Shown one piece after another: positions 27,414 to 44,869 of a stretch of DNA of 46,226 nt. Below the pieces are notes generated by a model, which made no database searches, had not been told where the DNA came from, and saw only the letters and a program-made list of their open reading frames with translations. How positions within the stretch are numbered: the stretch's first letter is position 1; the number at the start of each line of letters is the position of its first letter. Source of the stretch: Opitutaceae bacterium (GTDB taxonomy: Bacteria > Verrucomicrobiota > Verrucomicrobiia > Opitutales > Opitutaceae); contig SYDD01000055.1 in assembly GCA_005786775.1 (NCBI GenBank), positions 1-46,226 of the forward strand, written 5' to 3'. The position numbers and the translations under genes were made by a program.

Positions 27414-27420
27414 CGCGGCT

Positions 27421-27885
27421 TCAGGCGCGCTTGTAGACGAGCGCCGGATCGAACAGCCGCTCCCCGGTGAACGCGAGCCTCGGCGTGCCCGCCGCGGCGG
27501 CTTCGAGGTCCTCGAGCCGGCGGTAGAAGCAGGAACGGTAGCCATTGTGGCAGCTGGCGTTGGCGGCGCCGCGCTGCTCGACCTTCAGCAGCAGTACGTC
27601 CTGGTCGCAGTCGGTGCGCAGTTCGCGGACCTCCTGGGTGTTGCCCGACTCCTCGCCTTTCACCCAGAGCTTCTGGCGCGAGCGGCTCCAGTAGGTCGCC
27701 TTGCGGGTCCGCAGCGTGTGGGCGAGCGACTCCGCGTTCATAAAGGCGAACATCAGCACCTCGCCGGTCTGCGCGTCCTGGGTGATGCAGGGGATCAGAC
27801 CATCGGGCCCGAACTTGGGCTGCAGGGTCCGGCCGAGCTCGATCTCGGCCGTGGTCGTGCGGGGAGGGAAGCTGGACTGGCTCAT
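27421..27885 (-). CDS. hisI: Phosphoribosyl-AMP cyclohydrolase
   Basis: Motifs [40 protein letters not shown] and [11 protein letters not shown]. Confidence 0.94.
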
Positions 27886-28453: not shown

Positions 28454-28906
28454 GTGGCACTTGCGGGCAACACCTTCTATACCGGGCTCTTCCGGCATTC
28501 CTTGGACGACAAGGGTCGGTTGACGCTGCCGTCCGCGTGGCGCCAAGCCCACGCGGCGGAGGATCGGTTTTTGGCTACGCCCCATCCGGACGGTTACATC
28601 GCCGTGCTCCCGCCGCGGGAAGTTGAGGTGCTGCACGCCAAGATCTCCGGGATGAAGATGAGCGATGCGAAGGCGCAGGCTTTCGCCGCGCGGTTCTTTT
28701 CCCAAACGCAGGACTTCTCCTTCGACAAGGCCGGCCGCATCGGGCTCTCCGCCGAACTGCTGCGGCACGCGGGGATTGAACGCGAGGCAGTGCTGGTGGG
28801 TACGCTTACCAAGTTCAACATCTACACCCCGGCGCGCTGGCAGCAGGAGGAGGCGCGCGCGGCGGGCGAGCACTTCGGCGATTTGATGCGCCAAATGGAC
28901 ATCTAA
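28454..28906 (+). CDS. mraZ: Division/cell wall cluster transcriptional regulator MraZ
   Basis: Two SpoVT/AbrB repeats, [10 protein letters not shown] and FDKAGRIGL. First gene of the dcw cluster. Confidence 0.92.
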
Positions 28907-29046
28907 GATGCGCCGCCCGCTGCCAGCCCATCCCGCCGCTGCACCCCGACCCCCGCTGCTCCCGGGTCCGGCACGCCCGCGCCGGCGCGCGATCCTACGG
29001 CTACGGATGCTGGCGCGGTCGGCGCCGGCGGGGAGAGGAGGCGGCA

Positions 29047-30003
29047 ATGCCAAGCGCGGACGTTGAACCTGCCCCCACGGTGATTTCCCCCGGACACCAC
29101 CCCGTCCTGCTCCGCGAGGTGTTGGCGCTACTCGCGCCGCGCCCCGGGGATCGCTTCCTCGACTGCACCTTCGGTGGCGGCGGCCACACGCGCGCCCTGT
29201 TGGCTGCGGCGCCCGGAGTGCAGGTCGTGGCGTTGGACCGCGATCCCGCCGCGCGGGAACGCGCCGAACCCCTGTTGCGCGATTTCCCAGGCGCCCTCGA
29301 GCTGCTCGATCTCGACTTCGGCCGGCTGCGGGAACTCACGCCCTCTGGCTTTCAGGGCATCGTTTTTGACCTCGGGGTTTCCTCGTTTCAGCTCGATGAC
29401 GCCGCACGCGGCTTCTCTTTCCGGCAGGACGCCCCGGCGGACATGCGGATGGACCCGCGCGCCGGGGTGCCGGCCAGCCTCTGGCTAGAAACGGCCACCG
29501 AAGAGATGCTGGTGCGGGCGGTCCGCGACCTCGGCGAAGAGCCGCAGTGGCGCCGGGTCGTGCGCTCATTGCGCGCCGCGCGGGGTTCGGGGTTGCTAGC
29601 TCGCACGAGCTCCCTCGCCGCGCTCATCGCGGACGCCATTCCCACCCCGGTGCGGCATGCGTCGCGAATCCATCCGGCCACCCGTTCCTTCCAAGGAATT
29701 CGGATGGCGGTCAATGACGAGACCGGCGCCTTGGAGCGCGCGCTGCCCGAGGCCTTCGCCCGCCTCGCCCCTAGCGGCGTGCTCGCGATCATCAGCTTCC
29801 ATTCTCTCGAGGACCGGCCGGTGAAGCAGTTTTGCCGCCGGATGTGCGGGCAGCCCGAGAGTGCGGACGATGCTACGCCGCAGGATCTGCGCACGATCCG
29901 GGCCGAGCCGTTGACGCGCCGGCCGATCACGCCGACGGACGACGAAATCGCCGCTAATCCGCGCAGCCGTTCCGCGAAACTTCGCGCCGTGCGCCGCCTC
30001 TGA
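29047..30003 (+). CDS. rsmH: 16S rRNA (cytosine1402-N4)-methyltransferase (alternative start GTG 29080)
   Basis: Motifs [50 protein letters not shown] and [10 protein letters not shown]. Confidence 0.95.
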
Positions 30004-30012
30004 TTTTACGCC

Positions 30013-30405
30013 GTGAGAAAAGATACCTCCGCCTTCGTCAACCAGCTGCTAGTCTGGCTCCTCGTCACGATCGGCCTCGGCGGGTCCGTCGGACTGGTCA
30101 CCGTCTGGATGCGGCACCAGATTTCCGCCACCGCCAAGGCCAACCGTGATCTCGCGGCGCAGATCGCGCGCTACGACCGGCTGGTGGACGAGACGCGCAC
30201 CCAGATCGAGACGGAGCAGGCTTCGGACAAGCTCCGGCACCTCAATTCCGCGCTCGGCCTTGGACTCGTGCCGGTGAACCAGATTCCGGTCGTGCACGTG
30301 ACGGACAACGTGGTCGAGCGCCTCGCGCGCCGTGCCAATGCAGGAGTACTGACCGACGGGCCGGTGCCCGCGGCCGCGCTACGGATTACCCTGCCGGGGT
30401 TCTGA
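30013..30405 (+). CDS. Probable cell division protein FtsL-like
   Basis: Short N-terminus, one TM and a coiled coil, in the canonical position between rsmH and ftsI. Confidence 0.65.
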   Translation: MRKDTSAFVNQLLVWLLVTIGLGGSVGLVTVWMRHQISATAKANRDLAAQIARYDRLVDETRTQIETEQASDKLRHLNSALGLGLVPVNQIPVVHVTDNVVERLARRANAGVLTDGPVPAAALRITLPGF

Positions 30406-30408
30406 GCG

Positions 30409-32280
30409 ATGTCGAAGGGCTTCGCCTCCAGTGGCCGGATGGTCCTGATCGGCGGCATTCTGCTGCTGTGCCAAGCGGCGCTGGGCGTGCGGTTGGTCTG
30501 GCTGCACGTCGTTGACCGCGAGGCCCTACTCAAGCCGCTCGCCAAGGTCCGACCGATGCTGATTCCGGAGGCTGCCCGGCGCGGGGACATTCTTGACGCT
30601 CGCGGCGCCCGCCTCGCGACCAGCCGGTCTGAGATCTTGCTTGGGGTGGACCCGCATTCGTTGCTGCCGCGGGACGAGCGGAAGTGGGCCGAACTGGCGG
30701 CGCTGATCGAGTTGCCGGAGAGCGAACTCCGCGAGCGTTTCCAGCCTCGTTTCCGGCGCGGTGGCGTCCGGGGCGAAGAGACCGACGATGCTGGGGAGAC
30801 TCCCGTTCCGTTCGCGCTGCCCACGGCCCACGGGAGCGAGGAGGAGCAGCGGCCGATCACTTGGGTCAAGTTGCGGGAAGATGTCTCCGAGTCCCTCTAC
30901 GAGCGGGTCCGTCGGCTCGACATCCGGGGCGTCTATGGGATCCGGCATTACCGTCGGGTCTATCCGAGCAATGAGCTTGCGGCACATGTGATCGGTTACG
31001 TGAACCGCGAGCACCAGGCGGCGGCCGGGATCGAGGCGTACGCGGACTTTTACCTGCGGGGCCAGCAGGGTTGGCGGGTGGGGGAGCGCGACGGGCGCAA
31101 CCGGGAACTGCCCCAGTTCGCCTCCCGCGAGGTGCCGCGCCGCGACGGGTACAGCGTCGTACTGTCCATCGATTCCACGGTGCAGGACATCGTCGAGCAG
31201 GAGCTTGCGCAGCTCGCGGCCCGCTTTGAGCCCCGCAAGGCCTCGATCGTGGTTAGTGACCTCGACGGGTTCGTGCTAGCGCTCGCGAACTACCCTTCTT
31301 TTAACCTGAACGAATTCAACCGCGTACCAAAGGCAGAGGAGGCGCGGATGAAGAATGCGGCCGTCGCGGACATTTATGATCCGGGTTCGGTTTTCAAAAT
31401 CGTGCCCGCAGCGGGGGCCCTTGAAGAGCGGCTGGTGACCCCGCTGACCGTCCTCGACTGTACGGTCGATCGAGTGGCGCACCGCGGACGGATGCTCTCG
31501 CTGCCGGCCGAGGACCACAAGATGGGTAATCTCACGATCGCGGAGATCCTGAGCCACTCCAGCAACCGCGGGGCTGCGCAGCTGGGGATCATGCTGGGTG
31601 AGGAACGGCTCGAGCGGTACGCGCGCGCTTTCGGCTTCGGCGCGAAGCTCGGATTCCCGGTTGGCGGCGAGGTCGCGGGCATTCTGCACCCTCACCAGCG
31701 CTGGTACCCGATCGACATCACCCGCATCCCGATGGGGCATTCGGTCTCCTCCACGGTGTTGCAGATGCACCAGGCGATGTCGGTGATCGCCGCCGGCGGC
31801 GTCCTGCTGCGGCCGCAGGTGATCCGCGAGATCCGGGATTCCGCGAACGACACGGTCTACCGCTACGGCCGCACGGAGATTGGACGGGCGGTCTCGCCGC
31901 GTACCGCTGCCCAGGTCGCGGCGATGTTGGTCGGGGTTACCCGCAAGGGCGGTACGGCGCTCGAGGCCTCGATTACGGGGTTCGACGTAGCGGGCAAAAC
32001 CGGTACCTCCCAGAAGTTCGTGGATGGCCAGTGGTCCAAGAAGCACCACATCGCGTCGTTTTCCGGCTTTTTTCCTGCGGTTCGGCCGAAGGTCGTAATT
32101 ACCGTGATCGTGGATGATGCCGACCACAAGGCGCCAGGCGGCGTGGCTTATGGCCGCACGGTCGCCGCACCCTCGTTCAAGCGGATCGGCGAGCGCCTAA
32201 TTCCCATCCTCGACATCCGTGCAAGCGCGGCGGTCGTCCCGGCTTTGCTGGTCGCCCGGCGCGAGGGGAACGCTCGATGA
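30409..32280 (+). CDS. ftsI: Class B penicillin-binding protein (FtsI/PBP3)
   Basis: N-terminal TM, RRGDILD and RVYP. Catalytic motifs PGSVFK (SxxK), SSN (SxN) and KTGT are intact. Confidence 0.92.
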   Translation: MSKGFASSGRMVLIGGILLLCQAALGVRLVWLHVVDREALLKPLAKVRPMLIPEAARRGDILDARGARLATSRSEILLGVDPHSLLPRDERKWAELAALIELPESELRERFQPRFRRGGVRGEETDDAGETPVPFALPTAHGSEEEQRPITWVKLREDVSESLYERVRRLDIRGVYGIRHYRRVYPSNELAAHVIGYVNREHQAAAGIEAYADFYLRGQQGWRVGERDGRNRELPQFASREVPRRDGYSVVLSIDSTVQDIVEQELAQLAARFEPRKASIVVSDLDGFVLALANYPSFNLNEFNRVPKAEEARMKNAAVADIYDPGSVFKIVPAAGALEERLVTPLTVLDCTVDRVAHRGRMLSLPAEDHKMGNLTIAEILSHSSNRGAAQLGIMLGEERLERYARAFGFGAKLGFPVGGEVAGILHPHQRWYPIDITRIPMGHSVSSTVLQMHQAMSVIAAGGVLLRPQVIREIRDSANDTVYRYGRTEIGRAVSPRTAAQVAAMLVGVTRKGGTALEASITGFDVAGKTGTSQKFVDGQWSKKHHIASFSGFFPAVRPKVVITVIVDDADHKAPGGVAYGRTVAAPSFKRIGERLIPILDIRASAAVVPALLVARREGNAR

Positions 32281-33626
32281 GTGGTCTCCTGCTCACGCCC
32301 CCCTCCGGCCTCGCTCGCCGGGTGCCGCCACCCGCCCGCGCCGCGGCTGGGCGCGCGCGTCTGGGCGACCTACTCACGCCCGAGCAGCGCTTCGCGTCGG
32401 TCGGTCCGCTGGATCGTCCAATCGCGGGCCTTGCCGCGGATGCCCGACAGGTAGTGATGGGCAGCGTCTTCTTTGATGTGGCGCCAGCGGGGGATCTGCG
32501 GTCCGGGCTCGACGAGGCGGTATCCCGCGGAGCGATTGCGGTCGTAAGCCCCCGTCGGCCCCGCGTCGCGTTGGGCCGTGGCCTTACGGTCATCCAGGTG
32601 CCTGATCCGCTTCGCGCGCTCGCGGGGGTCGCTCGCCGCTTCTTTCGGCACCCGGACGTCGCCCTACGCCTCCATGCGGTGGAGGGCGATCACGGTAAGA
32701 CCACTGTCGCCCACCTGCTGCGCGGCCTGCTGGGCACGCCAGCGGAACTGGGTCTGATCAGCTCCGTTCACCACGATCTCGGTTCCCGCGTCCTGCCGGC
32801 TAGCGCCGCCTGCCCGCTCGCGTTTCACGCAGTGCTGGCTCAGATGCGCGATGCGGGCTGCACCGGCGCGGTGATTGAGCTCCCGTCCTGCCCCGCGGAG
32901 GCCGGGTGGCTGGCGGATACGGCGTGGGCCTCGCGACTCGATCTGCGGGTGGCGGCATCGGAGGCTGGAGTGGGAATTCCGGCGCCGTCCCGAAGTCTCC
33001 GTTTACGTGGGGTGGCGGACTGCACGGCCCCGATCCCGGAGCGCCTCCGGGGCGTAGGGGTCAACTTAGAGTTGGCCGTTCGGGCCGCGATAGAGCGGGG
33101 CGTGTCAACGGCCACCGTTGCGGCGCGCCTTGGGCGGTTGCCGCCCGTGCCCGGCCGGGGCGAACCGGTCGCGGTGCCTGGCGGCTTCGAGGTGTGGGTC
33201 GACGCGGCGGACCGGCCGGAACGGCTGGCGTATTTTCTCAGCTTGGTGCGCGCGCTCACTCCCGGTCGCGTGGCGCTGGTGTTGGGTTGTCCCGGTGAGT
33301 GCGACCCGGCGCCCCGTCCGACCTTGACGCGGGTCGGCGAGCAGGGGGCGGAGCTCGTAATGCTTACGGCGGCTGATTCTTGGGGCGAACCCCTGGAGGA
33401 GATCCTGCGCGATATGCTGCGCGGTACCGCGAACCCCGGAGCCATTCGCTGCGTGCCGGATCGTCGGGTCGCCGTGGCCGCGGCTTTGGATTGGGCCCGC
33501 CCGGGTGATGCCGTTGTTATCGCGGGTCGCGGCGCGGCGGCTTTTCAGCGCATCGAGCGGGTTGCCGTGCCGTGTGACGATCGCGGGCTAGTACGCGAAT
33601 GGGCGCGGGGGAGGTCGGGGCTGTGA
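32277..33626 (+). CDS. murE: Degenerate MurE-like Mur ligase (open frame, catalytic motifs destroyed; pseudo-enzyme or incipient pseudogene)
   Basis: Three-domain MurE outline and position between ftsI and murF with ATGA/GTGA overlaps. The P-loop is AVEGDHGKTT, there is no TTP and no DHLDYH, and DYAH, DNPR and GKGHE are all substituted. Confidence 0.8.
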   Translation: MSGLLLTPPSGLARRVPPPARAAAGRARLGDLLTPEQRFASVGPLDRPIAGLAADARQVVMGSVFFDVAPAGDLRSGLDEAVSRGAIAVVSPRRPRVALGRGLTVIQVPDPLRALAGVARRFFRHPDVALRLHAVEGDHGKTTVAHLLRGLLGTPAELGLISSVHHDLGSRVLPASAACPLAFHAVLAQMRDAGCTGAVIELPSCPAEAGWLADTAWASRLDLRVAASEAGVGIPAPSRSLRLRGVADCTAPIPERLRGVGVNLELAVRAAIERGVSTATVAARLGRLPPVPGRGEPVAVPGGFEVWVDAADRPERLAYFLSLVRALTPGRVALVLGCPGECDPAPRPTLTRVGEQGAELVMLTAADSWGEPLEEILRDMLRGTANPGAIRCVPDRRVAVAAALDWARPGDAVVIAGRGAAAFQRIERVAVPCDDRGLVREWARGRSGL

Positions 33627-35014
33627 GCGGCGGGTTCAACCCTGCAGAATTGGCGGCGTGGACCGGTGGACGCTGGACGCGGTCGCCTTCGGCGAGTCTC
33701 GTGGGCTTCCACTTTGATTCCCGACGTCTCGGGCCGGGCAGCGTCTTCGTGGCCTTGCCGGGCACGCAGCGGGATGGGCACGATTTTCTACCCGCGGCGG
33801 CCGCGGGGGGAGCGGCGGCCGCCCTGGTCTCCCGGCCGCGCGCGGACGCCGGTCTCCCGCAGCTCGTAGTGGGCGACCCGCTGCGGGCTTGGCAGGTGAT
33901 CGCGCGGGAGCACCGACGGCGGTTTACTGGGCCAGTCGTGGGAATTTCCGGGAGTGCGGGCAAGACCTCGACCAAGGACCTGCTCGCCCTCCTCCTCGGT
34001 GCCGCGGCGCGCGGCGTCGCCGCCACCGAGGGTAATTTCAACAACGAACTCGGTGTGCCCCTCACGCTCACCCGGCTCGACCCAGCCCGCGACCGGCTGG
34101 CCGTGATTGAGGCGGGGATTAGCCTGCCCGGGGAGATGGACCGGCTGGCCAAGATGATCGAGCCGGACATTGCCGTCATTACGTTGGTCGGGCCGGCTCA
34201 CTTGCAGGAACTGGGCGGTCTCGAGGGGGTGGCCCGCGAGAAGTCGCGCCTGCCCGCGGCGGTCCGGCCCGGTGGGCTGATGGTTTTTCCGGAGGAAGTT
34301 GCGGCCTGGCCCGCCTTCGCCGCCTTATCGGGTCGCCGAATCGTGGTGGCTCCCGGCGGAGAACCTGGCCCGGAACGGGTTGTGTGCACGCATGGGAGCG
34401 GACCCACGGGCACGCTCCTGCGGCTGGCAGGGGGCGGCGCGCCCGCGGCCGAGTTCCGCTGCCGCGCGGTCACCCCGGGACTCGCCCGCAACGCGGCCCT
34501 CGCGCTTACGATCGCTCGTCAACTTGGCGTATCAGACGCGGATCTGGCTGCCCGGCTCGCGACGTGGCTGCCGGCCCGCCTCCGAGCCGAAGTCCGTGAG
34601 ATCGGCGGCCGCTTCGTCTACCTCGATTGCTACAACGCGAACCCAGCTTCGATGGCGGACGCATTTGCCGGTTTTACCGCCCAAGCGCCGGTGGCGCAGC
34701 CTCGCCTGTACCTCCTCGGTTGCATGGAGGAGCTTGGCGTCGAGGCTGGCCGGCATCATCGCGAGCTCGGCGCGCGGCTGGCCCCGCTGCTGCGGTCGGG
34801 CGACCGGGTGCGCGTGCTTGGTACCGAGGCGGCGGCGGTGATCGAAGGTTTAGGCGCCACCGGGACGATGTCGGGAAGTGGCGCCGTATTGGCGTCCTTG
34901 AACGCGGCGGCGGCGGAGTTTGCCGCTTGGCCGGGCGCGGTGCTGCTGAAGGGCAGCCGACGCTATGCCCTCGAGGGCGTGTTGCCGGTGGGGGAGGGGG
35001 ACGCCCATGCTTAG
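33623..35014 (+). CDS. murF: UDP-MurNAc-tripeptide--D-Ala-D-Ala ligase
   Basis: Motifs DSRR, DGHDF, GISGSAGKTSTK, GNFNNELGVPLT, HLQELG, DCYNANPASM and LKGSR. Confidence 0.92.
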   Translation: MSGGFNPAELAAWTGGRWTRSPSASLVGFHFDSRRLGPGSVFVALPGTQRDGHDFLPAAAAGGAAAALVSRPRADAGLPQLVVGDPLRAWQVIAREHRRRFTGPVVGISGSAGKTSTKDLLALLLGAAARGVAATEGNFNNELGVPLTLTRLDPARDRLAVIEAGISLPGEMDRLAKMIEPDIAVITLVGPAHLQELGGLEGVAREKSRLPAAVRPGGLMVFPEEVAAWPAFAALSGRRIVVAPGGEPGPERVVCTHGSGPTGTLLRLAGGGAPAAEFRCRAVTPGLARNAALALTIARQLGVSDADLAARLATWLPARLRAEVREIGGRFVYLDCYNANPASMADAFAGFTAQAPVAQPRLYLLGCMEELGVEAGRHHRELGARLAPLLRSGDRVRVLGTEAAAVIEGLGATGTMSGSGAVLASLNAAAAEFAAWPGAVLLKGSRRYALEGVLPVGEGDAHA

Positions 35015-36122
35015 CTACCTAGCCCAGTACGAGGACTACTTCGGTCCGCTGCGCCTGTTTGGGTCGATCACCGTTCGTACGATGCTCGCGGCGGTCACGG
35101 CGCTGTGGCTCGGCTTCCTCCTTGGGCCGCGATTGATCCGCGTGTTCCGGGCGTGGAAGTTCGGGCAGGGTTATATCGACGACCGCACGGGCGCTCTGGG
35201 ATCGACCTACTTCGACAAGAAGCACACCCCAGCGATGGGGGGCCTGATTATCTGCCTCCCCGTCCTCATCAGCGGGCTGTTGTGGGCCGCGCCCAATATC
35301 TGGGTGCTGGTCACTCTGATGGTCTACGCGGCGCTCACCATTCCGGGCTTTCGGGATGATCTCCTCAAGGTCCGGCGCCGCAGCCGCGACGGCATCTCGG
35401 GCTGGGAGAAGATCGCCTGGCAAAGCGGGGCCACGCTACTGGCGCTGGCGCTGCTATTCTGGCACCCGCTGAGCGCCGGGAAGATCCGCGAGTTCTGGGT
35501 GCCGTTCGTGAAGCAAGCCGTCATCCCCTCGATGCCCTGGTGGCTGCTGCTCCTCCTGCTCTACTTGTGGGTAGTGGGTTTCAGTAACGCCATCAATCTT
35601 ACCGACGGTCTCGACGGGCTGGCGACTGGCTGCACGATCACGGTAGCCCTCGTCTTCGCGGTGATGGCCTATCTGGCCGACCACGTGTTCCTCTCCGAGT
35701 ACCTGCTCATCAGCCACGTGCCCGGCACCGGCGAGCTCACGGTCATCTGCGGTGCCCTCATCGGCGGCTGCATGGCCTTCCTCTGGTACAACTCGCACCC
35801 GGCCGAAGTCTTCATGGGCGACACTGGATCGCTCGCGCTCGGAGGCTTGCTCGGGATTATGGCCTTCATGATTCACCAGCCCGTGACGCTTGTCATCGCG
35901 GGCGGCGTCTTCGTGGCGGAGGCGCTCTCGGTGATCATTCAGGTGGGGTGGTTCAAGGCCACCCGCTGGCGCTACGGCGAGGGTCGGCGCTTTTTCCTGA
36001 TGGCTCCGATCCACCATCATTTTCAGAAGCGCGGCTGGCCCGAGACCAAGGTCGTGCTGCGCTTTTGGATCCTATCCTTGGGCTGCGCGCTCGCCAGCCT
36101 AGCCACCCTCAAACTCCGCTAA
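35007..36122 (+). CDS. mraY: Phospho-N-acetylmuramoyl-pentapeptide transferase
   Basis: Motifs KKHTPAMGG, GFRDD, NAINLTDGLDGL, FMGDTGSL and MAPIHHHF. Confidence 0.95.
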   Translation: MLSYLAQYEDYFGPLRLFGSITVRTMLAAVTALWLGFLLGPRLIRVFRAWKFGQGYIDDRTGALGSTYFDKKHTPAMGGLIICLPVLISGLLWAAPNIWVLVTLMVYAALTIPGFRDDLLKVRRRSRDGISGWEKIAWQSGATLLALALLFWHPLSAGKIREFWVPFVKQAVIPSMPWWLLLLLLYLWVVGFSNAINLTDGLDGLATGCTITVALVFAVMAYLADHVFLSEYLLISHVPGTGELTVICGALIGGCMAFLWYNSHPAEVFMGDTGSLALGGLLGIMAFMIHQPVTLVIAGGVFVAEALSVIIQVGWFKATRWRYGEGRRFFLMAPIHHHFQKRGWPETKVVLRFWILSLGCALASLATLKLR

Positions 36123-36126
36123 ATCG

Positions 36127-36297
36127 ATGCCCCCGGCCTCTTCCCTGCTTCCCGCGCCCCTCGCACCCCGGTACGCCGCCTGCCTTGGATGGCCTCGCCT
36201 GAGGGTACCGCTTGCGCTCGCGCTGCGTTGCCCCTCACCTCGGGCTGTTCAACGCCGTTCCTTCCTGCCCTGCTACCGGCAACTCCGCTCCTTATGA
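36127..36297 (+). pseudogene. 56-codon ORF at the expected murD position (possible murD deletion scar)
   Basis: ATG lies 4 nt after the mraY stop and the TGA overlaps the LysM ATG (ATGA at 36294-36297). No Mur ligase motifs are recognisable; the call rests on position only. Confidence 0.3.
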
Positions 36298-37247: not shown

Positions 37248-37256
37248 GCCCCCGGC

Positions 37257-38408
37257 GTGGTCGTATCCGCTCAGACCACCGTCACCCGCCGCGCACGCGC
37301 GGCTTCGCTGGTCAACCCGGCGAACATCATCCTGCTCTGCGCCTTGGCGCTCGTCGCGCTCGGGCTTACCATCCTTTTCAGCGCTAGCGCGGGTTTCAAG
37401 AAGGGGCCTTACTTTTACTTGAACAAGCAGCTGGTCGGCCTGGCGGCCGCTGCCGTCCTCTGCTTTGTGGCGAGCCGGCTAAACCTCGATTACCTCCGCC
37501 GCTACGCTTGGTGGATCGGGGGTGCCTGTCTGGTACTGCTCGCGTTGGTGCTGGTTGTCGGGATTAGCGTTAATGGTAGTCGTCGCTGGCTGGGCTACGG
37601 ATCCTTCCGTTTTCAGGTGTCGGAATTTGCCAAGCTCGGTCTCGTCTTTTGCCTCGCGCACTACTTGGCCCTGAACCAAACGCGCATCGCCGAGTTCAAG
37701 CGTGGCTTTGTTTACCCGGGTGGAATTATCGGCGCCTTCGCGCTGCTCACTCTCCTGGAGCCGGATTTCGGCGTTTCTGCCCTGATGGTCGCCGTCGGCC
37801 TGGTGCTAATGTTCCTTGCCGGCGCGCGCTGGAGGTACCTCGTGCCCGCCTTCCTCGCGGTGTCCGTGGTATTCACCATCGCCGTGATCCAGAATCCGAA
37901 CCGGCTGCGCCGGATGACGGAGTTCTTGAGTGAAGAGAAATCTTACCAGCTACGCCAGGGTCTGGCCGCGTTCGCCGCCGGCGGGGTCGAAGGGGCCGGC
38001 CTAGGCCAGGGGCGCCAGCAACTCAGCTACCTCCCGGAGGCCCATACTGATTATATCTTCTCCGTTGTGGGCGAGGAGCTGGGGCTTTTTTTCACCCTCG
38101 CCGTCGTGCTGTGCTTCACGGTCATCCTCATCGCCGGGCTGGTCCACCTGCGGCGCGCGCCGAGCTTGTTCCACTTTCTCCTCGTCCTCGGCAGCCTCCT
38201 CCTGATTTGCGTCCAAGCAATCATCAACGTGGGGGTCGTGACGGCCGTGCTGCCGACCAAGGGGATGTCGCTGCCGTTTATTAGCGCTGGGCTCTCGAAC
38301 CTTTTGCTCATGGGGCTGCTGCTCGGGATCATTCTCAACAGCCAGCGCCGGTGGGGCCGCGCGGGCCTGCCGGCTGGTGCGGGTGCGATGCGGGAGGTCC
38401 GCACGTGA
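37257..38408 (+). CDS. ftsW: SEDS family peptidoglycan glycosyltransferase FtsW
   Basis: Motifs NGSRRWL, QVSEFAK, LEPDFG, LPEAHTDYIFSVVGEELG and LPTKGMSLPFISAG. Confidence 0.92.
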   Translation: MVVSAQTTVTRRARAASLVNPANIILLCALALVALGLTILFSASAGFKKGPYFYLNKQLVGLAAAAVLCFVASRLNLDYLRRYAWWIGGACLVLLALVLVVGISVNGSRRWLGYGSFRFQVSEFAKLGLVFCLAHYLALNQTRIAEFKRGFVYPGGIIGAFALLTLLEPDFGVSALMVAVGLVLMFLAGARWRYLVPAFLAVSVVFTIAVIQNPNRLRRMTEFLSEEKSYQLRQGLAAFAAGGVEGAGLGQGRQQLSYLPEAHTDYIFSVVGEELGLFFTLAVVLCFTVILIAGLVHLRRAPSLFHFLLVLGSLLLICVQAIINVGVVTAVLPTKGMSLPFISAGLSNLLLMGLLLGIILNSQRRWGRAGLPAGAGAMREVRT

Positions 38409-39514
38409 GTCGGTTCCTGATCGCGGCCGGTGGCACCGGCGGACACTTGGCGCCGGGCATCGCCCTCGCCGAGGCCCTGGGGGAGCGCGGGCACCACTGC
38501 CTGATCCTGATCAGCCGCAAGCAGGTGGACGCCCGCCTCGGGGCACGGTACCCGGAGCTCCGGTTCGCGGCGATGCCCGGCGCCGGCCTCGGGACCAATC
38601 CGATCACGTTCGTGCGCTTTGTGGGTTCCCAGCTGCGGGCGCTGTCCTTTTGCCTTGGCATCTTTCGACAGGAACTCCCAGACGTTGTCGTCGGCTTCGG
38701 CGGGTTCACCAGCGCGCCGGCCCTCCTCATTGCTCGGCTCCGGGGTATCCCCGCTGCCCTCCACGAGTCTAACCGTGTTCCTGGGCGCGCCGTGCGGTTG
38801 CTCGGCCGCGTGGCGCGCCGCGTGTATTTGCCGCCCGGCGTCGACCTGCCCGCGCTGAATCCGGTCGTCGTCCGCGCCGCCGCGATGCCGGTGCGGCGCG
38901 AAATCCAGCGCCTCCCCCGCGCCGCCGCCCGGGCCCGCTGGGGCTTCGATGACGCCAGCCCGCTGCTCGTTGTGCTCGGCGGCAGCCAGGGCGCCTCTGC
39001 CCTCAATGCGTGGGCCACTGGGCATCGCGCCGCCCTCGCCGCAGGCGGAGTCCAATTGGCGGTCGTCACCGGCCCCGGGAAGGAGGCAGGCGTCGAGTTG
39101 CTCCCCACCGGGCGGCCGAAGGCCATCTTCCTGCCGTTTTGCGATCAGATGGCCGCACTCCTCTCGGCCGCAGATCTTGTCGTCTCCCGCGCCGGAGCTG
39201 GCACCCTTGCAGAATTGATCCGTTGCCGGACCCCCGCGCTCCTCGTGCCCTTTCCTCAGGCGGCGGACAACCACCAAGCGGCCAACGCAGATCACTTCGC
39301 CTGCCTTGGGGGCGGCGAGGTTTTCCCGCAGACGGGCCTCGGCGCGCTCCTGCCCCGAGTACTCCAGCTCCTGTCCGATCCGAACACCCTGGCGGAATAC
39401 GGCCGGCGGCTTGCCGCTGCGGATTCCGCCCTCCGCTGGGAGGAGATCCTCCCCGACCTTGAGGCGCTTGCCACCTCCGCGCCGTCACCTTCCGCCGCCG
39501 CGGCCGCCGCCTGA
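38405..39514 (+). CDS. murG: Undecaprenyldiphospho-muramoylpentapeptide beta-N-acetylglucosaminyltransferase
   Basis: Motifs AAGGTGGH, GFGGF, HESN, GGSQGA, SRAGAGTLAE and DNHQAANA. Confidence 0.92.
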   Translation: MSRFLIAAGGTGGHLAPGIALAEALGERGHHCLILISRKQVDARLGARYPELRFAAMPGAGLGTNPITFVRFVGSQLRALSFCLGIFRQELPDVVVGFGGFTSAPALLIARLRGIPAALHESNRVPGRAVRLLGRVARRVYLPPGVDLPALNPVVVRAAAMPVRREIQRLPRAAARARWGFDDASPLLVVLGGSQGASALNAWATGHRAALAAGGVQLAVVTGPGKEAGVELLPTGRPKAIFLPFCDQMAALLSAADLVVSRAGAGTLAELIRCRTPALLVPFPQAADNHQAANADHFACLGGGEVFPQTGLGALLPRVLQLLSDPNTLAEYGRRLAAADSALRWEEILPDLEALATSAPSPSAAAAAA

Positions 39515-40485
39515 TGCCCATCGTCTCCTACTCTGGGCCCGCCCGCGATTGGGACGCTCTCGCCGTCGCCTTAGCCGCCGCGATGGGCGGCGCGTCTCGG
39601 GTCCGGCGCGAGGAGCCCTTGGGCCCCCGCACCACGCTGCGGGTCGGGGGCGCGTCCCGCCTTTTCCTCGAGCCCGCCGATGCCGCCGCGCTCGCCTCCG
39701 CGCTCCGCTTTCTCCGCGCGGCCGGCGTACCTTTCCTCCCATTGGGCCGCGGTTCTAACCTCCTTGTGCCCGACGAGGGCGTAGACGGCGCCGTAATCGC
39801 CCTCGAAGGCTCTACGTGGTCGGCCTTCACGCCTAACGGTGATGGCACCGTCTGGACCGGTGCCGGGCTGCGGCTGAAGCAGCTTTGCGGCCTCGCGACC
39901 AAGGCCGGTCTGGCGGGCTTCGAGTTCCTCGAGGGCATTCCCGGCACTGTCGGCGGAGCGCTACGGATGAACGCGGGCGCGATGGGTGGCTGGATGTTCG
40001 ATCGGGTCGAGGAGGTGGAGCTAATGTCCGCTGAGGGTGAGGTCGTCCGCCTGCCGCGCGCCGCTTTCCACGTTGATTACCGCCACTGCCGCGAGCTGGG
40101 GGATGCGATTGCCCTCGGGGCCCAGCTTCGTTCCGGCGCCACGGCGGCCACGCCGGCGGAAGAGATTGTCCGTCAGATCGACGTCTATCGTCGCAAACGC
40201 CAAGAATCCCAGCCGCGGGAGGCTAGCGCGGGCTGCATGTTCAAAAACCCGCCGGGCGACTCCGCCGGGCGCCTGATCGACCAGTGTGGCCTAAAGGGGC
40301 TGCGCGAGGGCGCCGCCGAGGTCTCGCCGGTCCACGCCAATTTCATCGTCAACCACGGCGGCGCGACGGCCGCTGAGGTGCTCGCGCTCGTTCGGCGGGT
40401 GCGTGCGGCGGTGTACGCGCAAAAGGGGGTTGAATTGCAGCCCGAGGTGCTGCTTTTCGGTCGCCGGTGGGAGGAATACCTGTGA
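39514..40485 (+). CDS. murB: UDP-N-acetylenolpyruvoylglucosamine reductase (stand-alone; Cys in place of the usual catalytic Ser)
   Basis: Motifs TTLRVGG, GRGSNLLV, GIPGTVGGALRMNAGA, SAGCMFKNP, HANFIVN and LQPEV. TGATG coupling to murG. Confidence 0.93.
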   Translation: MPIVSYSGPARDWDALAVALAAAMGGASRVRREEPLGPRTTLRVGGASRLFLEPADAAALASALRFLRAAGVPFLPLGRGSNLLVPDEGVDGAVIALEGSTWSAFTPNGDGTVWTGAGLRLKQLCGLATKAGLAGFEFLEGIPGTVGGALRMNAGAMGGWMFDRVEEVELMSAEGEVVRLPRAAFHVDYRHCRELGDAIALGAQLRSGATAATPAEEIVRQIDVYRRKRQESQPREASAGCMFKNPPGDSAGRLIDQCGLKGLREGAAEVSPVHANFIVNHGGATAAEVLALVRRVRAAVYAQKGVELQPEVLLFGRRWEEYL

Positions 40486-41408
40486 ACGCGCCGATCATCA
40501 CCGTACTGGCCGGCGGCATTTCCGCTGAACGCGAGGTCTCGCTCGGCTCCGGCCGCGCCAGCGCCCTTGCGCTCGCCCGTGCCTTTCCCACCCGCCTCCT
40601 CCAGGTCACCACCGCCGCCCTGCCTCCGGGTCTCGATCCGGCCCGCGACGTCGTCTTCTCCACGCTCCACGGCACGTTTGGCGAGGACGGAGGGATGCAG
40701 CGGCTGCTCGACGCGGCCGGGATCGAGTACGCCGGTTGCGATGCGGCAGCCAGCGAGCTGACCATGGATAAGTCCGCCACCAAAGCCCGCGCTGCCGCGG
40801 CCGGAGTTCGGGTGGCGGAGGGAATGAGCTTCCGGGCGGACGAGCGTCCCTCCGCCGCCGACTTGGTCGCTCGCCTCGGCCCGCGCGTGGTGCTCAAGCC
40901 CAACGCCGAGGGCAGCAGCGTTGGGCTCAGCCTACCCGAAGGCCCGGACGCGATCGCCGCGGCGCTGGCGGGCATCACCGCGGGGTCTTGGCTGGCAGAG
41001 CGGCGTCTCTCCGGGCGGGAACTTTCCGTCGGTGTCCTTGAGGGTCGCGCGCTCGGAGTCGTCGAGATCCGGCCTCGTTCGGGCGTGTACGATTTCACGA
41101 GCAAGTACACGCGCGGGATGACGGAATACTTCGCGCCTGCCCCCCTCGCCGCGGACCAGACCGCCGCGGTCCAGCGGGCGGCTGAGACGGCCTTCGCGGC
41201 CTGCGGCTGCCGCGACTACGCCCGCGTAGATTTCATTTTGGAGACCGCGGGCCCTTGTCTCCTTGAGATCAACACCCTGCCCGGGATGAAGGAGACCAGC
41301 CTCCTACCGATGAGCGCTCGGTGCACGGGCTTTGATTTCACTGCCTTGGTCCCGGCCCTAGTGGCGCCTGCCCGGCGGCGCTTCGCCGCCCGACGAGGCG
41401 CCGGCTAA
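40482..41408 (+). CDS. ddl: D-alanine--D-alanine ligase
   Basis: Motifs GGISAEREVSLGSG, LHGTFGEDG, MDK, KPNAEGSSVG, YDFTSKY and EINTLPGM. Confidence 0.94.
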   Translation: MNAPIITVLAGGISAEREVSLGSGRASALALARAFPTRLLQVTTAALPPGLDPARDVVFSTLHGTFGEDGGMQRLLDAAGIEYAGCDAAASELTMDKSATKARAAAAGVRVAEGMSFRADERPSAADLVARLGPRVVLKPNAEGSSVGLSLPEGPDAIAAALAGITAGSWLAERRLSGRELSVGVLEGRALGVVEIRPRSGVYDFTSKYTRGMTEYFAPAPLAADQTAAVQRAAETAFAACGCRDYARVDFILETAGPCLLEINTLPGMKETSLLPMSARCTGFDFTALVPALVAPARRRFAARRGAG

Positions 41409-41410
41409 AG

Positions 41411-42382
41411 ATGGCGCGCGCGCTCCCAGATCCCGATGGTATCCGCAGTTGGCGGGATATTCCCCAGCCGGCGAGTACGCGCGTAATGTCGCGGGGCGGC
41501 CGCTGGCGCCGGCTCCTGCAGACCCTGCGCGTCCTGCTGCTGACCGGGGCCATGGCCGGCCTGGGCGGCCTCGCCTGGTTTACCGCCGGCGCTCTCAGCC
41601 GCGATCCGGGTCGGGTGCCCGACGTGGCCCGCTCGGTCCCGCTCCGCCGCCTCGAACTTGCGACCACCGCCGGCGGTGTGCTCGACCTCGAATGGCTCCG
41701 CCGCACGCTCGCGCTGCCGCCCACGGCCACGCTGGTGGAACTGGACCTCGAGGCCCTCCGCGGCCGCCTGCTCGCGGATCCCCAGGTCGTCTCCGCCACG
41801 CTCACCCGGCAGTTCCCTGACACACTCGCCGTCCGCCTCGCGGAACGCTCCCCGGTCGCGCGGATCCGCGTTGAGCGCAACGGCGAGGCGCGCGACCTGC
41901 TCGTCGCTTCCGACGGGGTCGTGTTTCCCGGGGTGAACCAAGATCCAGCGGCGCTCGCCTCGCTCCCTTGGCTATCCGGCCTCGCGCTTCATCCCGCCGG
42001 AGACGGCTTCCGTCCGATCCCGGGAATGGCGGCCGTCGCCCAACTGCTGGCGGACGCTCAGTACGCGGCGATGCCTTTGTACCGTAGCTGGACTTCCCTC
42101 TCCCTTGCGCGGCTCGCCTCCGACCGGGAGATCGAGGTCCAGACCCGGGACGGTGCGACGGTGGTCTTCAGCGCCGCCCGCGACTTCTTCGTGCAACTGG
42201 CGACGCTCGACTACCTCGCCTCCCGCCTGCGCCGCGAACCTGGCGCGCACGCGCGCATCGACTTGACCCTTGGGCGCAACGTGCCGGTGATGGTTACGCC
42301 GCCGGGGGAAAGCGCGGCCTCTCCGCGCCCGCCTTCGCCCGCGCCCGGCCGCTTCTCCCTCGATTCCTTCCCGCAGCGCTGA
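41411..42382 (+). CDS. ftsQ: Cell division protein FtsQ/DivIB (TM + POTRA)
   Basis: One TM and POTRA motif PQVVSATLTRQFPDTLAVRLAERSPVA. Position between ddl and ftsA. Confidence 0.82.
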   Translation: MARALPDPDGIRSWRDIPQPASTRVMSRGGRWRRLLQTLRVLLLTGAMAGLGGLAWFTAGALSRDPGRVPDVARSVPLRRLELATTAGGVLDLEWLRRTLALPPTATLVELDLEALRGRLLADPQVVSATLTRQFPDTLAVRLAERSPVARIRVERNGEARDLLVASDGVVFPGVNQDPAALASLPWLSGLALHPAGDGFRPIPGMAAVAQLLADAQYAAMPLYRSWTSLSLARLASDREIEVQTRDGATVVFSAARDFFVQLATLDYLASRLRREPGAHARIDLTLGRNVPVMVTPPGESAASPRPPSPAPGRFSLDSFPQR

Positions 42383-42389
42383 ATCTCCC

Positions 42390-43601
42390 TTGAGCTCACG
42401 CCCCTACCACATCGGTGCCGTCGAGATCGGCACCTCCAAGGTCACCGTCATTGTCGGCGAGTACTCCGGCAAGGAACTCGCCATTATCAGTCGCGCCGAA
42501 GTGCCCGCCCGTGGGATCATCAAGGGGGCCGTGGTTGACTACCGCGCCGCCAGCGACTGCACGCACGCCGCCCTCGAACAAGCTGAGCGGGACGCCGGCG
42601 AACGCATCGGGGGTGTTTTCCTGGCTCAGAGCGGCAGCCACCTAGAGGGTTTCTATAACGAGGCGGCCGTGAATGTGAAAGCCTCGGACAACCTCGTCGA
42701 GGCGGGTGACGTCGCCACGGTCTGCGAGCTCGCCAAGGCCAAGCAGCTGCCCCTCGGTCGCTCCGTCGTCCACCACATCCGCCGCCCCTTCCGCGTCGAC
42801 GGCCGCCTGGTCCCCGGTAGCCCCCTCGACCTCGTTGGCCACCGGCTTGAGGTCGGCTACTGGACCGTCCACGGCCAGGAGCAGCGGCTCGCCGACCTGA
42901 TTCACGTGATCCAAGGCTTCAACCTGAAGGTCGAGGAGCTGGTCCTTTCTAGCCTCGCCTCGGGCCACATGGTCACCTCTCCCGAGGAGCGCCAACACGG
43001 GGTACTCGTGATCGATCTCGGCGCGGGTACGACCGATTTCGCCCTCTACCGCGACGGTTCTCCCCACACCACCGGGGTAGTCGCGGTGGGCGGCGAGCAC
43101 GTCACCAACGACCTCGCCGTCGCCCTCCGCCTCACCGCGCCGCAGGCCGAGAAGCTCAAACTCCGCCACGGCCGCGCTGAGGTCCAAGCCCGCGACCGCG
43201 CGGCCAAGGTCTGGCTCGACGGGAATTTCGCCATTGGCGATCGCCAGTTCCCCCAGCTTGCCATTGAGCAGGTCACCGCCGCTCGCACCGAGGAGATCCT
43301 CCAAGTCGTGCGCAAGCGCCTCGGCGTCGCCTTCTCCCCGGAGACTTGCGCCGCCGGCGTGGTACTCACCGGGGGCGCCGCCAAGCTCCCCGGTCTTGCC
43401 GCCGCCGCTGGCCGCGTCTTCGGGGTCCCCGCCCACCTCGGGGAGGCTCCCGGCTGGATCAGCCCAAACCTCCGCGACCCGGGTTACCACACTGCGCTGG
43501 GACTGCTGTACTACGGCATCATCCACCACTCCGAGCGTCGGGCCCCCGCTCGTGCCCGGAACAGCCTCTTCGCCGGGGTTCGCCGCCTCTTCGCCGACTG
43601 A
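42390..43601 (+). CDS. ftsA: Cell division protein FtsA
   Basis: Motifs EIGTSKV, GIIKG, IDLGAGTTD, GGEHVTNDL, AEKLK and LTGG. C-terminal amphipathic helix LFAGVRRLF. Confidence 0.93.
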   Translation: MSSRPYHIGAVEIGTSKVTVIVGEYSGKELAIISRAEVPARGIIKGAVVDYRAASDCTHAALEQAERDAGERIGGVFLAQSGSHLEGFYNEAAVNVKASDNLVEAGDVATVCELAKAKQLPLGRSVVHHIRRPFRVDGRLVPGSPLDLVGHRLEVGYWTVHGQEQRLADLIHVIQGFNLKVEELVLSSLASGHMVTSPEERQHGVLVIDLGAGTTDFALYRDGSPHTTGVVAVGGEHVTNDLAVALRLTAPQAEKLKLRHGRAEVQARDRAAKVWLDGNFAIGDRQFPQLAIEQVTAARTEEILQVVRKRLGVAFSPETCAAGVVLTGGAAKLPGLAAAAGRVFGVPAHLGEAPGWISPNLRDPGYHTALGLLYYGIIHHSERRAPARARNSLFAGVRRLFAD

Positions 43602-43612
43602 CCCGCGCGCCG

Positions 43613-44869
43613 ATGAACCTCAACGAACTTCCCCTCGAGCAGCCCCTGCTTTCGGACCGCGGCATTGCCATCAAGCTAGTCGGGGTCGGCGGCGCCGGCG
43701 CGAATGCCGTTGACCGCCTCAAGATGGAGAACCTCGAGCGCCTCCGTCTCGCGGTGCTCAATACCGACCACCAAGCCCTCGCCAGCTCCCCCGTCCAAGA
43801 AAAAGTCCTGCTCGGGATGACCGTCACTCGCGGCCTCGGCGCCGGCGGTGACCCGGAACGCGGCCGCGAGGCCGCCGAGTCCGACCGAGAAAAAATCGCC
43901 GCCGTGGTGAAGGACTGCGATCTGGTGTTCCTCGTAACTGGGATGGGCGGGGGCACCGGTAGCGGCGCCTCCCCGATCGTGGCCGAGATCGCCGCCGAGG
44001 CGGGAGCCCTCGTCATCGCCTTCGTCACGCTTCCTTTTAGCTTCGAGGGCGGTCGTCGCCTCAAGCAGGCGGAGGACGGGTTGCGTGCCCTCCGCGCCTC
44101 CTGCGACGCGGTGATCCCCCTGCCCAACGACGTCCTGCTCCAGGCCGCCGGAGAAAACGAGACGGTGCTCGATGCTTTCGCTCGTGCGGACGACTGGATC
44201 GCCCGCGGGGTCCGCTCCCTCTGGGCGATGCTGTTCCGCACCGGACTTATCAACCTCGACTTTGCCACGCTCCGCCAGGCCTTCCAGCAGCGCGGGGGGA
44301 AGACGCTCTTCGGGCTGGGGGAGGGGGCCGGCGAGAACGCGGTCGCCGACGCGCTTGCCAGCCTCCGGCAGTGCCCGCTGCTCCAAACCCCGGATTTCTC
44401 CCGCCGCGCCGATCGCCTTTTAGTTAACATCGTCGGCGGCCCCGACCTCACGCTGCCCCGTGTCAACGAGGTGATGACCGCGATTACCGACCAGTTTGGC
44501 CGCGATTCTCACGTGATTATGGGGGCGGTGATCGACGAGAATCTCGCGGGCCGGGTAGAGCTCTGCGTGGTAGGCACCAGTGACCTCGGCGGCCGCAACG
44601 TCAGCGCCCGCCGCCCCGCTGCGCCGGCCCGGCCCAAGGGCGCCGCCGCCCTGGGCCGAGAGCCCGTGGCGGCCCCCGCTGACCCCGCTGCGGCAGCGTC
44701 TTCCCCGGCTCCATCCCTTGCCCACGGTGCCGCGGTGGCCCAGGAGGAGTTCGGGTTTGGCGAGATCGAGACCCGCGGGCAGTTCGAACGCTCGGAGCGC
44801 AACCTCTTCGACGGCCAGGACCTCGACGTGCCTACCTACCTACGCCGCGGGATCAAGGTCAGCCTCTAA
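43613..44869 (+). CDS. ftsZ: Cell division protein FtsZ (T7 loop NLDFAT variant)
   Basis: Motifs GVGGAGANAV, NTD, GLGAGGDP, GMGGGTGSG and PFSFEG. C-terminal core peptide DLDVPTYLRR. Confidence 0.95.
   Translation: MNLNELPLEQPLLSDRGIAIKLVGVGGAGANAVDRLKMENLERLRLAVLNTDHQALASSPVQEKVLLGMTVTRGLGAGGDPERGREAAESDREKIAAVVKDCDLVFLVTGMGGGTGSGASPIVAEIAAEAGALVIAFVTLPFSFEGGRRLKQAEDGLRALRASCDAVIPLPNDVLLQAAGENETVLDAFARADDWIARGVRSLWAMLFRTGLINLDFATLRQAFQQRGGKTLFGLGEGAGENAVADALASLRQCPLLQTPDFSRRADRLLVNIVGGPDLTLPRVNEVMTAITDQFGRDSHVIMGAVIDENLAGRVELCVVGTSDLGGRNVSARRPAAPARPKGAAALGREPVAAPADPAAAASSPAPSLAHGAAVAQEEFGFGEIETRGQFERSERNLFDGQDLDVPTYLRRGIKVSL

Follow-up and report, generated by a model that had tools for sequence, protein, structure and literature searches.

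Repeated and ordered loss of the first three stem-peptide steps from the dcw cluster of Opitutaceae

The ligases MurC, MurD and MurE, which catalyze the first three stem-peptide steps of peptidoglycan synthesis, are treated as essential in walled bacteria. In the recycling systems of Escherichia coli, Psychrobacter arcticus and Vibrio cholerae (AmpG-NagZ-AmpD-LdcA-Mpl), a canonical Mpl attaches a murein peptide to the UDP-sugar precursor ahead of MurF, as a dispensable side route beside MurC-E. The murC-murB fusion of verrucomicrobia is an essential gene in Verrucomicrobium spinosum (PMC12283558, in excerpt), and Rast et al. found that cultured Opitutaceae contain diaminopimelic acid (DAP) and sacculi, along with a murC-murB gene (PMC5303756, in its accessible part). 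Here, we analyze the division and cell wall (dcw) gene cluster of an Opitutaceae bacterium (GenBank assembly GCA_005786775.1), carried by contig SYDD01000055.1, whose entire 46,226 nucleotides (nt) we call the window. The cluster has lost murC and murD and retains a murE whose product, MurE*, is predicted to be catalytically dead. The first three stem-peptide steps have been dismantled repeatedly, and in order, within this widespread free-living family.

The genome holding the window (G000; the window is its contig C319) comprises 2.96 Mb in 397 contigs, is 73.8% complete and is the sole genome that was scanned whole. Its closest titled relatives are metagenome-assembled genomes (MAGs) of Opitutia/Opitutaceae, with 76-82% identity in MurE*, and freshwater metagenomes from several studies contain the same stretch; no RNA dataset was among those listed as holding the region. 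We scored 102 dcw loci, the loss counts covering the sampled Opitutales, and compared 56 murC-less genomes (loss genomes) with 22 murC+murD+ genomes (keepers). The five closest genomes (G000, G009, G011, G023, G057) are referred to as the window's clade.

The cluster reads mraZ-rsmH-ftsL-ftsI-murE*-murF-mraY-(56-codon ORF)-lysM-ftsW-murG-murB-ddl-ftsQ-ftsA-ftsZ (Table 1), where ORF stands for open reading frame. Genes were named by NCBIfam for the most part, by Pfam for FtsQ and LysM, and by tblastn against a relative for ftsL, which reproduced the order given in a first-pass annotation made from the DNA letters. In murC+murD+ relatives, murD occupies the interval from mraY to lysM, and murC forms the N-terminal half of a fusion with murB in a frame of ~800 amino acids, the ancestral state, kept at 35 loci. 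In the window, the mraY-lysM gap measures 171 nt and murG and murB overlap by 1 nt, so that, as the annotation had held, neither murD nor murC would fit: murD has been deleted between mraY and lysM, and the murC half has been cut from the ancestral fusion, leaving murB alone. Both junctions are bridged by contigs whose studies differ from the one that may have yielded the window, namely mraY-lysM in runs X5 (record 21) and X6 (record 28), and murG-murB in runs X2 (record 15) and X6 (record 31), which excludes misassembly at the two places that the annotation had marked for such a check.

No relocated copies were found. The Mur_ligase_M matches in G000 are four, i.e., MurF, MurE*, FolC and a protein on contig C181 that corresponds to Mpl, and MurC, MurD and MurE profiles derived from relatives, run against the six frames of this incomplete genome, returned nothing further. 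Three murC-less relatives assembled as single contigs (G130, G163, G200) likewise hold four matches each (MurE, MurF, Mpl and FolC alone), compared with seven in the murC+murD+ genome G127. The three functionally consecutive steps singled out in the annotation are thus gone, through neither an ordinary relocation nor a gap.

Loss of murC and murD is a lineage trait rather than a product of incompleteness. A murD gene passes the cut-off in 16 of 43 same-genus genomes (27 are without it) and has a match in 159 of 201 family genomes; one of the remaining 42, G255, was not counted as a loss because it has no Mur ligase match at all, and neither were G149 and G061, whose contigs end inside or before murD. 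Among the 102 loci, 35 carry both genes and 44 lack both with the two junctions contiguous; seven are murC-less with a piece of murD, one has a scrap of murC, one lacks murC only, and 14 were not fully scorable. Dollo counting on a ten-protein dcw tree puts the independent losses at 15 (14 within Opitutaceae and one in G040, from another family), a number that is unchanged after collapsing nodes below 0.95 support and that recombination could alter; the losses thus occurred independently about 15 times in the sampled Opitutales. Among the best 120 matches to the stand-alone MurB, the sources that name an organism are all MAGs, with no named cultured strain, which says little.

The order of loss is MurC first, then MurD, followed by decay of MurE. 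The annotation had the three ligases displaced as a unit, an idea that does not survive the staged intermediates: G151, the seven loci with truncated murD, and a MurE that ranges from intact to dead. In G151, murC is gone and murD is whole, with MurD motifs already drifting; therefore, Mpl does not simply substitute for MurC. This genome (L115; contig C124), the sole murC-less one with a whole murD, also shows an in-frame TGA within murE, where a conserved Trp is expected, and a single TGA in the match to Mpl, both of which could be assembly errors or early decay. Two genera have independently cut MurD to its first two domains, with the catalytic motifs gone (L099-L103 and L105; G179, G079, G196, G119, G175, G242); in g24, the truncated protein is under purifying selection, with a ratio of nonsynonymous to synonymous substitution rates (dN/dS) of 0.10. 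In another family, locus L133 (G037) has full-length but decaying MurD and MurE, with murC and murB both absent from the dcw cluster.

MurE alone decays among its neighbors. MurE* falls ~70 residues short of intact MurE, is without NLTRDHLDYH and the lysine that follows, and reads DSWG in place of DNPR and GDHGKTT in place of TNGKTT, so that it departs from the pattern we take to define an active MurE (P-loop TNGKTT, TxDHLDYH, carbamylated lysine and DNPR). Changes affect 54% of 174 otherwise invariant residues (range among loss genomes, 1-56%), the middle domain keeps 24 of 76, and the score falls to 175 bits against a TIGR01085-type cut-off of 257. In contrast, MurF, MraY, FtsI, Ddl, MurB and MurG have 0-3% of such residues changed in the window and no more than 9% across the loss genomes of Opitutaceae, and the enzymes flanking murE* carry what we take to be their catalytic motifs, in line with the annotation. 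The relative rate of MurE is raised in 17 of 17 loss groups (0.76-3.99 vs. 0.64), and that of MraY is not. Decay is far less advanced in g51 and g49, where MurE is nearly intact after the loss of murC and murD (23 and 44 invariant-site changes per unit tree length, respectively); pairs from g51, g49 and g40 range from 23 to 50, versus 224-273 in MurE-dead clades. The near-intact MurE of g51 and g49 suggests that the dipeptide form of UDP-linked N-acetylmuramic acid (UDP-MurNAc) still exists there.

The annotation had called murE dead, which holds for the catalytic core and not for the gene. Frames of murE are stop-free in 100 of 101 cases, and in the window's clade dN/dS is 0.21 for MurE* and 0.14 for MurF. 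A structural model of MurE* (pLDDT 87) has the three-domain Mur ligase fold, with a TMq of 0.84 to E. coli MurE (1e8c). We thus predict that MurE* is a folded, selected and catalytically dead pseudoenzyme, and not a pseudogene. The top structural match of the model is PAP11 (8r6s_Q, TMq 0.83), the MurE-like subunit of the plastid-encoded RNA polymerase and a MurE-fold protein kept without ligase function; at 23% identity, a value that true MurE also gives, and with an unrelated origin and complex, it serves as an analogy only. A scaffold role for MurE* is plausible in light of reported Mur-Mur contacts (PMC10214165, in excerpt), and translational coupling to murF could contribute to its retention.

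With MurC and MurD gone, the entry point of the stem peptide is very probably Mpl. The C181 protein scores 391.2 bits against the TIGR01081 cut-off of 388.7 and 231 against 335 for the MurC model, and carries SAFFDKRSK and the loop GICGTAMG, where (S/T)AFFDKRSK, described as Mpl-specific (PMC3060825, in excerpt), and GI(C/G)GT are expected. The peptide-domain residues HH, EARSNT and TNG correspond to the expected HH, E-P-R-S-N-T and S-N-G, and the P>A change is common to the window's clade. Of the 56 loss genomes, 53 have an Mpl, as do 21 of the 22 keepers; since ~2.3 misses are expected from incompleteness, the three misses among loss genomes fit that cause. By its sequence, the protein appears canonical and vertically inherited, and adaptive change after loss was sought and not seen in 42 of 47 loci (five were unparsed), with one weak column and a rate ratio of 1.11 vs. 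0.87. The horizontally acquired replacement ligases considered in the annotation are rejected: there is no extra Mur ligase, Mpl is unchanged, and the Mpl and epimerase trees (see below) broadly follow the dcw tree. A second Mpl in G242 (contig C89, 4 kb; L228) groups with the window's clade and is probably mis-binned.

Both substrates of Mpl have a likely place in this metabolism. UDP-MurNAc is likely made, because a MurA match was found in five of five murC-less genomes (in G000 it is divided between two contigs) and because MurB is intact, and UDP-MurNAc-tripeptide is likely consumed, because neither MurF nor Ddl is impaired in sequence. Among known enzymes, Mpl alone joins UDP-MurNAc and tripeptide, and it is the only ligase left for loading UDP-MurNAc; the downstream-of-tripeptide enzymes, unchanged while MurE decays, also count for this assignment. 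Thus, from the routes listed in the annotation, the data favor the Mpl-like tripeptide ligase. The P. arcticus enzyme processes 260 tripeptides per min, as opposed to 1.4 for L-Ala-D-Glu and 0.7 for L-Ala (PMC3060825, in excerpt).

The best correlate of the loss, ahead of amidase and AmpG, is a putative dipeptide epimerase. In G163, a wall-degradation cluster (anmK, murQ, GHL10, amidase, nagZ) includes an enolase-fold protein with 3IJI as its best solved relative, and the gene lies in similar clusters (nagZ, amidase, ampG, murQ, anmK) in several genera. We take 3IJI, whose PDB entry is labelled 'Muconate cycloisomerase', to be a Bacteroides L-Ala-D/L-Glu (dipeptide) epimerase. The match to 3IJI has an E-value of 7e-131, compared with ~1e-40 for 1JPD/1JPM, and the protein has the MR_MLE N and C domains of Pfam. 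The motifs KVKLG, VDANQ, EQP, ADE, KLMK and DLDG and a loop R align to 3IJI, presumably supplying two catalytic lysines, three metal ligands, a DxD and the loop arginine, and the catalytic motifs are invariant in 24 sequences. The G163 protein falls below the NCBIfam equivalog cut-offs (162 vs. 343 for the YcjG model; 222 vs. 400 for DgcA, an N-acetyl-D-Glu racemase), so the PDB relative is the sole basis for naming its substrate.

Orthologs of this epimerase (E < 1e-100, 61-87% identity) occur in 52 of 56 loss genomes and four of 22 keepers, and in 14 of 14 Opitutaceae loss lineages. Twelve sister contrasts, with pairs picked on the dcw-protein tree and presence lists transcribed by hand, gave 9:0 with three ties for the epimerase (p 0.004), 5:0 for Amidase_2 and 4:1 for AmpG. 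The G000 ortholog (contig C174, 72% identity) is conserved and predicted to be cytoplasmic, and in the window's clade the gene has a dN/dS of 0.08-0.14, although the rest of the cluster is gone there. G040 and G037 have no ortholog, which counts against a universal role. No YkfC-type NlpC/P60 protein that could feed the epimerase was found in any of five genomes, nor was a short MpaA-like peptidase, although two of the five have short M14 peptidases.

Two other candidates near this subject were set aside. Glutamate racemase (PF01177) is patchy in both states and uninformative as a marker; the strong matches inspected adjoin unrelated genes and look to us like RacX/YgeA-type racemases. Seven murC+murD+ genomes (G014, G015, G017, G021, G051, G052, G127) have no Asp/Glu racemase match, which leaves their D-glutamate source unexplained. 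A PaaK/CapK-like adenylate-forming protein beside the epimerase (G000:C174:6431-7693; L162), considered as a ligase for meso-diaminopimelate (mDAP), is not discriminating, being present in 78 of 78 Opitutaceae in any state. It has no Pfam match, is named only a putative AMP-binding enzyme in a protein atlas, and looks like a family core gene: 71 of the 78 have it at 70-95% identity and the other seven in a 30% form, while G040 and G037 lack it.

We favor an explanation that can be rationalized into three stages. (i) Bypass: in lineages that kept the epimerase, L-Ala-L-Glu would be converted to L-Ala-D-Glu, loaded by Mpl and extended by MurE. The epimerase likely let Mpl and MurE bypass MurC and MurD in this manner, which would have made murC and murD dispensable. 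The UDP-MurNAc-dipeptide that the near-intact MurE of g51 and g49 implies would likewise come from the epimerase and Mpl, without need of an undescribed enzyme. (ii) Decay: once the supply of tripeptide sufficed, MurE catalysis would have decayed, the protein being kept for a non-catalytic role. (iii) Present state: the organism is predicted to make UDP-MurNAc itself via MurA and MurB; Mpl would join to it a preformed L-Ala-gamma-D-Glu-mDAP tripeptide, which the cell probably scavenges from other bacteria; and MurF, Ddl, MraY, MurG, FtsW and FtsI, all with intact sequences, would finish a normal pentapeptide wall. A tripeptide is required in the window's clade because MurE cannot act there, and it has to be either obtained externally or synthesized in some other way because, by stoichiometry, recycling of the cell's own wall gives no net growth. 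That Mpl loads a ready-made, most likely scavenged tripeptide we hold at roughly even confidence, and the external origin of the peptide is, taken by itself, just as finely balanced.

Scavenging has a cultured precedent in walls built from foreign fragments (PMC11652737, in excerpt), and G000 encodes five OppA-type (SBP_bac_5) binding proteins, two Amidase_3 proteins and three NamZ genes. The latter, of the exo-muramidase family, lie on contigs C62, C155 and C210; no anmK, murQ or nagZ was found in G000. The wall-degradation cluster in which the epimerase lies is enriched in loss lineages, and so is an Amidase_2 lipoprotein (47 of 56 loss genomes, compared with 12 of 22 keepers). Several observations weigh against scavenging through Mpl. 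The complete E. coli-type recycling set (AmpG, Amidase_2, LdcA) is missing from the window's clade: AmpG-like permeases and Amidase_2 were each found in none of its five genomes, and LdcA-type S66 peptidases in none of five, although loading of tetrapeptide by Mpl is toxic in Vibrio (10.1101/771642, in excerpt). The presence of AmpG does not follow the loss (41 of 56 loss genomes vs. 15 of 22 keepers); both of the OppA-type proteins that were compared are closer to OppA than to MppA, and no clear MppA was seen. The MurA matches fall below the curated cut-off in all five genomes, a comparison made without a murC+ control, and the three loss genomes in which Mpl was not found (G043, G055, G213) are 93-95% complete. 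The loss extends to genomes of 8-10 Mb (G200, G060), which are not streamlined. Lastly, the epimerase is strongly selected where MurE is dead and no feeding peptidase was found, which pure scavenging explains poorly.

This last point leads to the alternative that survives best, a tentative one that we consider possible: the peptide is home-made, with the epimerase producing L-Ala-D-Glu, an undescribed ligase unrelated to MurE adding mDAP, and Mpl loading the product, all without outside supply. L-Ala-L-Glu would derive from protein or peptide turnover, and mDAP would be added to either the free dipeptide or UDP-MurNAc-dipeptide. The sister contrasts of the epimerase and its persistence after its cluster neighbors were lost agree with such a route, as does the near-intact MurE of some loss clades, which points to UDP-MurNAc-dipeptide without MurC and MurD; the enzyme would also supply D-Glu where glutamate racemase is patchy. 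However, L-amino-acid ligases of the ATP-grasp_4 type were found in none of five genomes, there is no additional Mur-family protein, and the PaaK-like ligase is present regardless of state. G040 lost murC and murD with just a 36% paralog of the epimerase; the characterized Mpl is ~200-fold slower on dipeptide, and no adaptive change in Mpl is seen here; and the epimerase could instead destroy L-Ala-D-Glu, stopping a dead-end Mpl product. A fully de novo, MurC/MurD-independent stem route in Opitutaceae, with MurE in lineages like this one and, in two other genera, truncated MurD kept as selected, non-catalytic proteins, is possible but less likely than not. The undescribed wall pathway proposed in the annotation thus stays live through the epimerase link, with no candidate ligase found.

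Non-homologous enzymes could have replaced MurC, MurD and MurE stepwise on UDP-MurNAc, with Mpl and the epimerase as bystanders. Profile searches are blind to analogous enzymes, and a single, 74%-complete genome was scanned whole; nevertheless, ~15 losses would need three such enzymes, either ancestral or repeatedly gained, and the correlation with the epimerase would be left unexplained, making this account improbable. Slightly less probable again is an altered stem without a diamino acid at position 3, in which Mpl would load L-Ala-D-Glu, MurF would add D-Ala-D-Ala and another amine would form the cross-link. MurF keeps 97-100% of its invariant residues in nearly all loss genomes, and the wall-binding motif of Pal, which we take to bind mDAP, is identical in three MurE-dead genomes and a murC+ control, so the different stem peptide raised in the annotation is unlikely. 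Such a stem would, however, need no unknown ligase, MurF is somewhat faster in several MurE-dead clades (2.1-2.7 vs. 1.46), and hydrolysates of Opitutaceae contain ornithine and low DAP (PMC5303756, in its accessible part). A vestigial or vanishing peptidoglycan would accord with older reports of no detectable DAP in the group and with ~ten-fold less DAP than in E. coli, and is very improbable given the normal purifying selection on MurF, MraY, FtsI, Ddl, MurB and MurG and the RodA and PBP2 homologues of G000. Least probable of all is an artefact, with murC, murD and a good murE hidden in the missing quarter of a genome in 397 contigs, or a misassembled window: for the lineage, it is refuted by the same contiguous layout at 44 loci, the missing murD of same-genus and single-contig genomes, and the independently bridged junctions.

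Table 1. Features of the dcw cluster, in window coordinates.
Feature	Position	Strand	Basis
mraZ	28454..28906	+	NCBIfam MraZ models, below cut-off
rsmH	29047..30003	+	TIGR00006 over cut-off
ftsL-position gene	30013..30405	+	51% identity to same-position gene of G015; no family match
ftsI (PBP3), intact	30409..32280	+	SVFK/SSN/KTG; 3% invariant residues changed; dN/dS 0.05
murE*, predicted catalytically dead, open frame	32277..33626	+	175 bits vs. cut-off 257; dN/dS 0.21
murF, intact	33623..35014	+	TIGR01143 over cut-off; 2% invariant residues changed
mraY, intact	35007..36122	+	TIGR00445 over cut-off
Former murD site, 171-nt spacer with 56-codon ORF (36127-36297)	36123..36293	+	murD position in murC+murD+ relatives
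LysM protein, conserved dcw member in family	36294..37247	+	PF01476 x2; present in all site-spanning loci
ftsW	37257..38408	+	TIGR02614 314 bits; motifs present
murG	38405..39514	+	TIGR01133 202 bits; 2% invariant residues changed
Stand-alone murB, C-terminal half of ancestral murC-murB fusion	39514..40485	+	NF010480 over cut-off
ddl, intact	40482..41408	+	NF002378 over cut-off; 0% invariant residues changed
ftsQ	41411..42382	+	POTRA_1
ftsA	42390..43601	+	TIGR01174 over cut-off
ftsZ	43613..44869	+	TIGR00065 over cut-off

The start of murF is probably the GTG at 33623. The 56-codon ORF at the former murD site is open in five of five close relatives and has no MurD profile match, which rules it out as a murD remnant. 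Nor does it belong to the family of small ORFs of ~60-75 amino acids (NRAFxRAWAARR), against which it gave no score, with 183 of 500 shuffles equally high. Members of that family come directly after mraY in genera g1, g23 and g40, whether murD is present or not (e.g., L032 in G054, L047 in G005 and L063 in G016), and another family, of 59 amino acids (MPIDYNFE...FAGVR), lies directly after mraY in g49 and g51. Elsewhere in the window, a pyridoxal phosphate-dependent decarboxylase (25995-27545, minus strand), with the L-2,4-diaminobutyrate decarboxylase RhbB as its best model, below cut-off, sits just upstream of the dcw cluster and downstream of hisI. Two TonB-dependent receptors (8608-11721 and 17120-20221, both minus strand) and a chondroitinase-B-like beta-helix protein (11899-13314, plus strand) are ordinary polysaccharide-use genes.

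If scavenging through Mpl is true, many common lake and soil-type bacteria depend on the wall peptides of their neighbors, which would help explain their resistance to culture and suggest a simple medium supplement; if a de novo route is true, bacteria have another way of synthesizing the stem peptide. Given the staged intermediates and the epimerase link, three purified enzymes would suffice to test either reading. The findings also bear on the old question of how much peptidoglycan the group contains, and they provide natural MurE and MurD pseudoenzymes for probing the non-catalytic roles of Mur ligases. A full-text literature search, which covered mostly titles and the starts of abstracts, with subscription journals outside its coverage, returned no paper on murC/murD loss in Opitutaceae or on an anabolic Ala-Glu epimerase. 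Wall scavenging is known (Fidelibacter), while no published account of the staged, peptide-only loss or of the epimerase link was found.

Among known systems, the Mpl recycling pathways differ in that Mpl is here the sole loading ligase, and that the window's clade has no detected AmpG, Amidase_2 or S66 LdcA. The epimerases YcjG of E. coli, YkfB of Bacillus subtilis and the 3IJI family share the enolase fold and catalytic motifs with the enzyme described here. YcjG and YkfB act in catabolic steps after MpaA or YkfC; by contrast, the Opitutaceae enzyme tracks murC/murD loss, occurs where no YkfC was found in five of five genomes, and may have an anabolic or proof-reading role. In Xanthomonas, as far as the excerpted report goes (PMC8788868), MurD2/MurL also sets the D-Glu configuration by peptide epimerization, acting with ATP on the UDP-linked dipeptide, in a route that retains MurC and MurE together with a MurD-type ligase. 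The present genomes have no proteins of the MurC or MurD type, and no MurD-like ligase for such a route matched in G000 or in the single-contig loss genomes (no search for MurL was made). The closest parallel is Fidelibacter multiformis IA91, of class AB16, likewise a free-living Gram-negative without de novo stem synthesis that builds on foreign wall pieces, which was shown there and is proposed here; according to the available part of its description (PMC11652737), it cannot make MurNAc, D-Ala, D-Glu or DAP, a state inherited from its ancestors. The Opitutaceae genomes share with it the lack of a working MurC, MurD and MurE, and not the lack of MurNAc and D-Ala-D-Ala synthesis: unlike IA91, they still have MurA, MurB and Ddl, have dropped the peptide-loading steps alone, on about 15 occasions and with visible intermediates, and retain a dipeptide epimerase.

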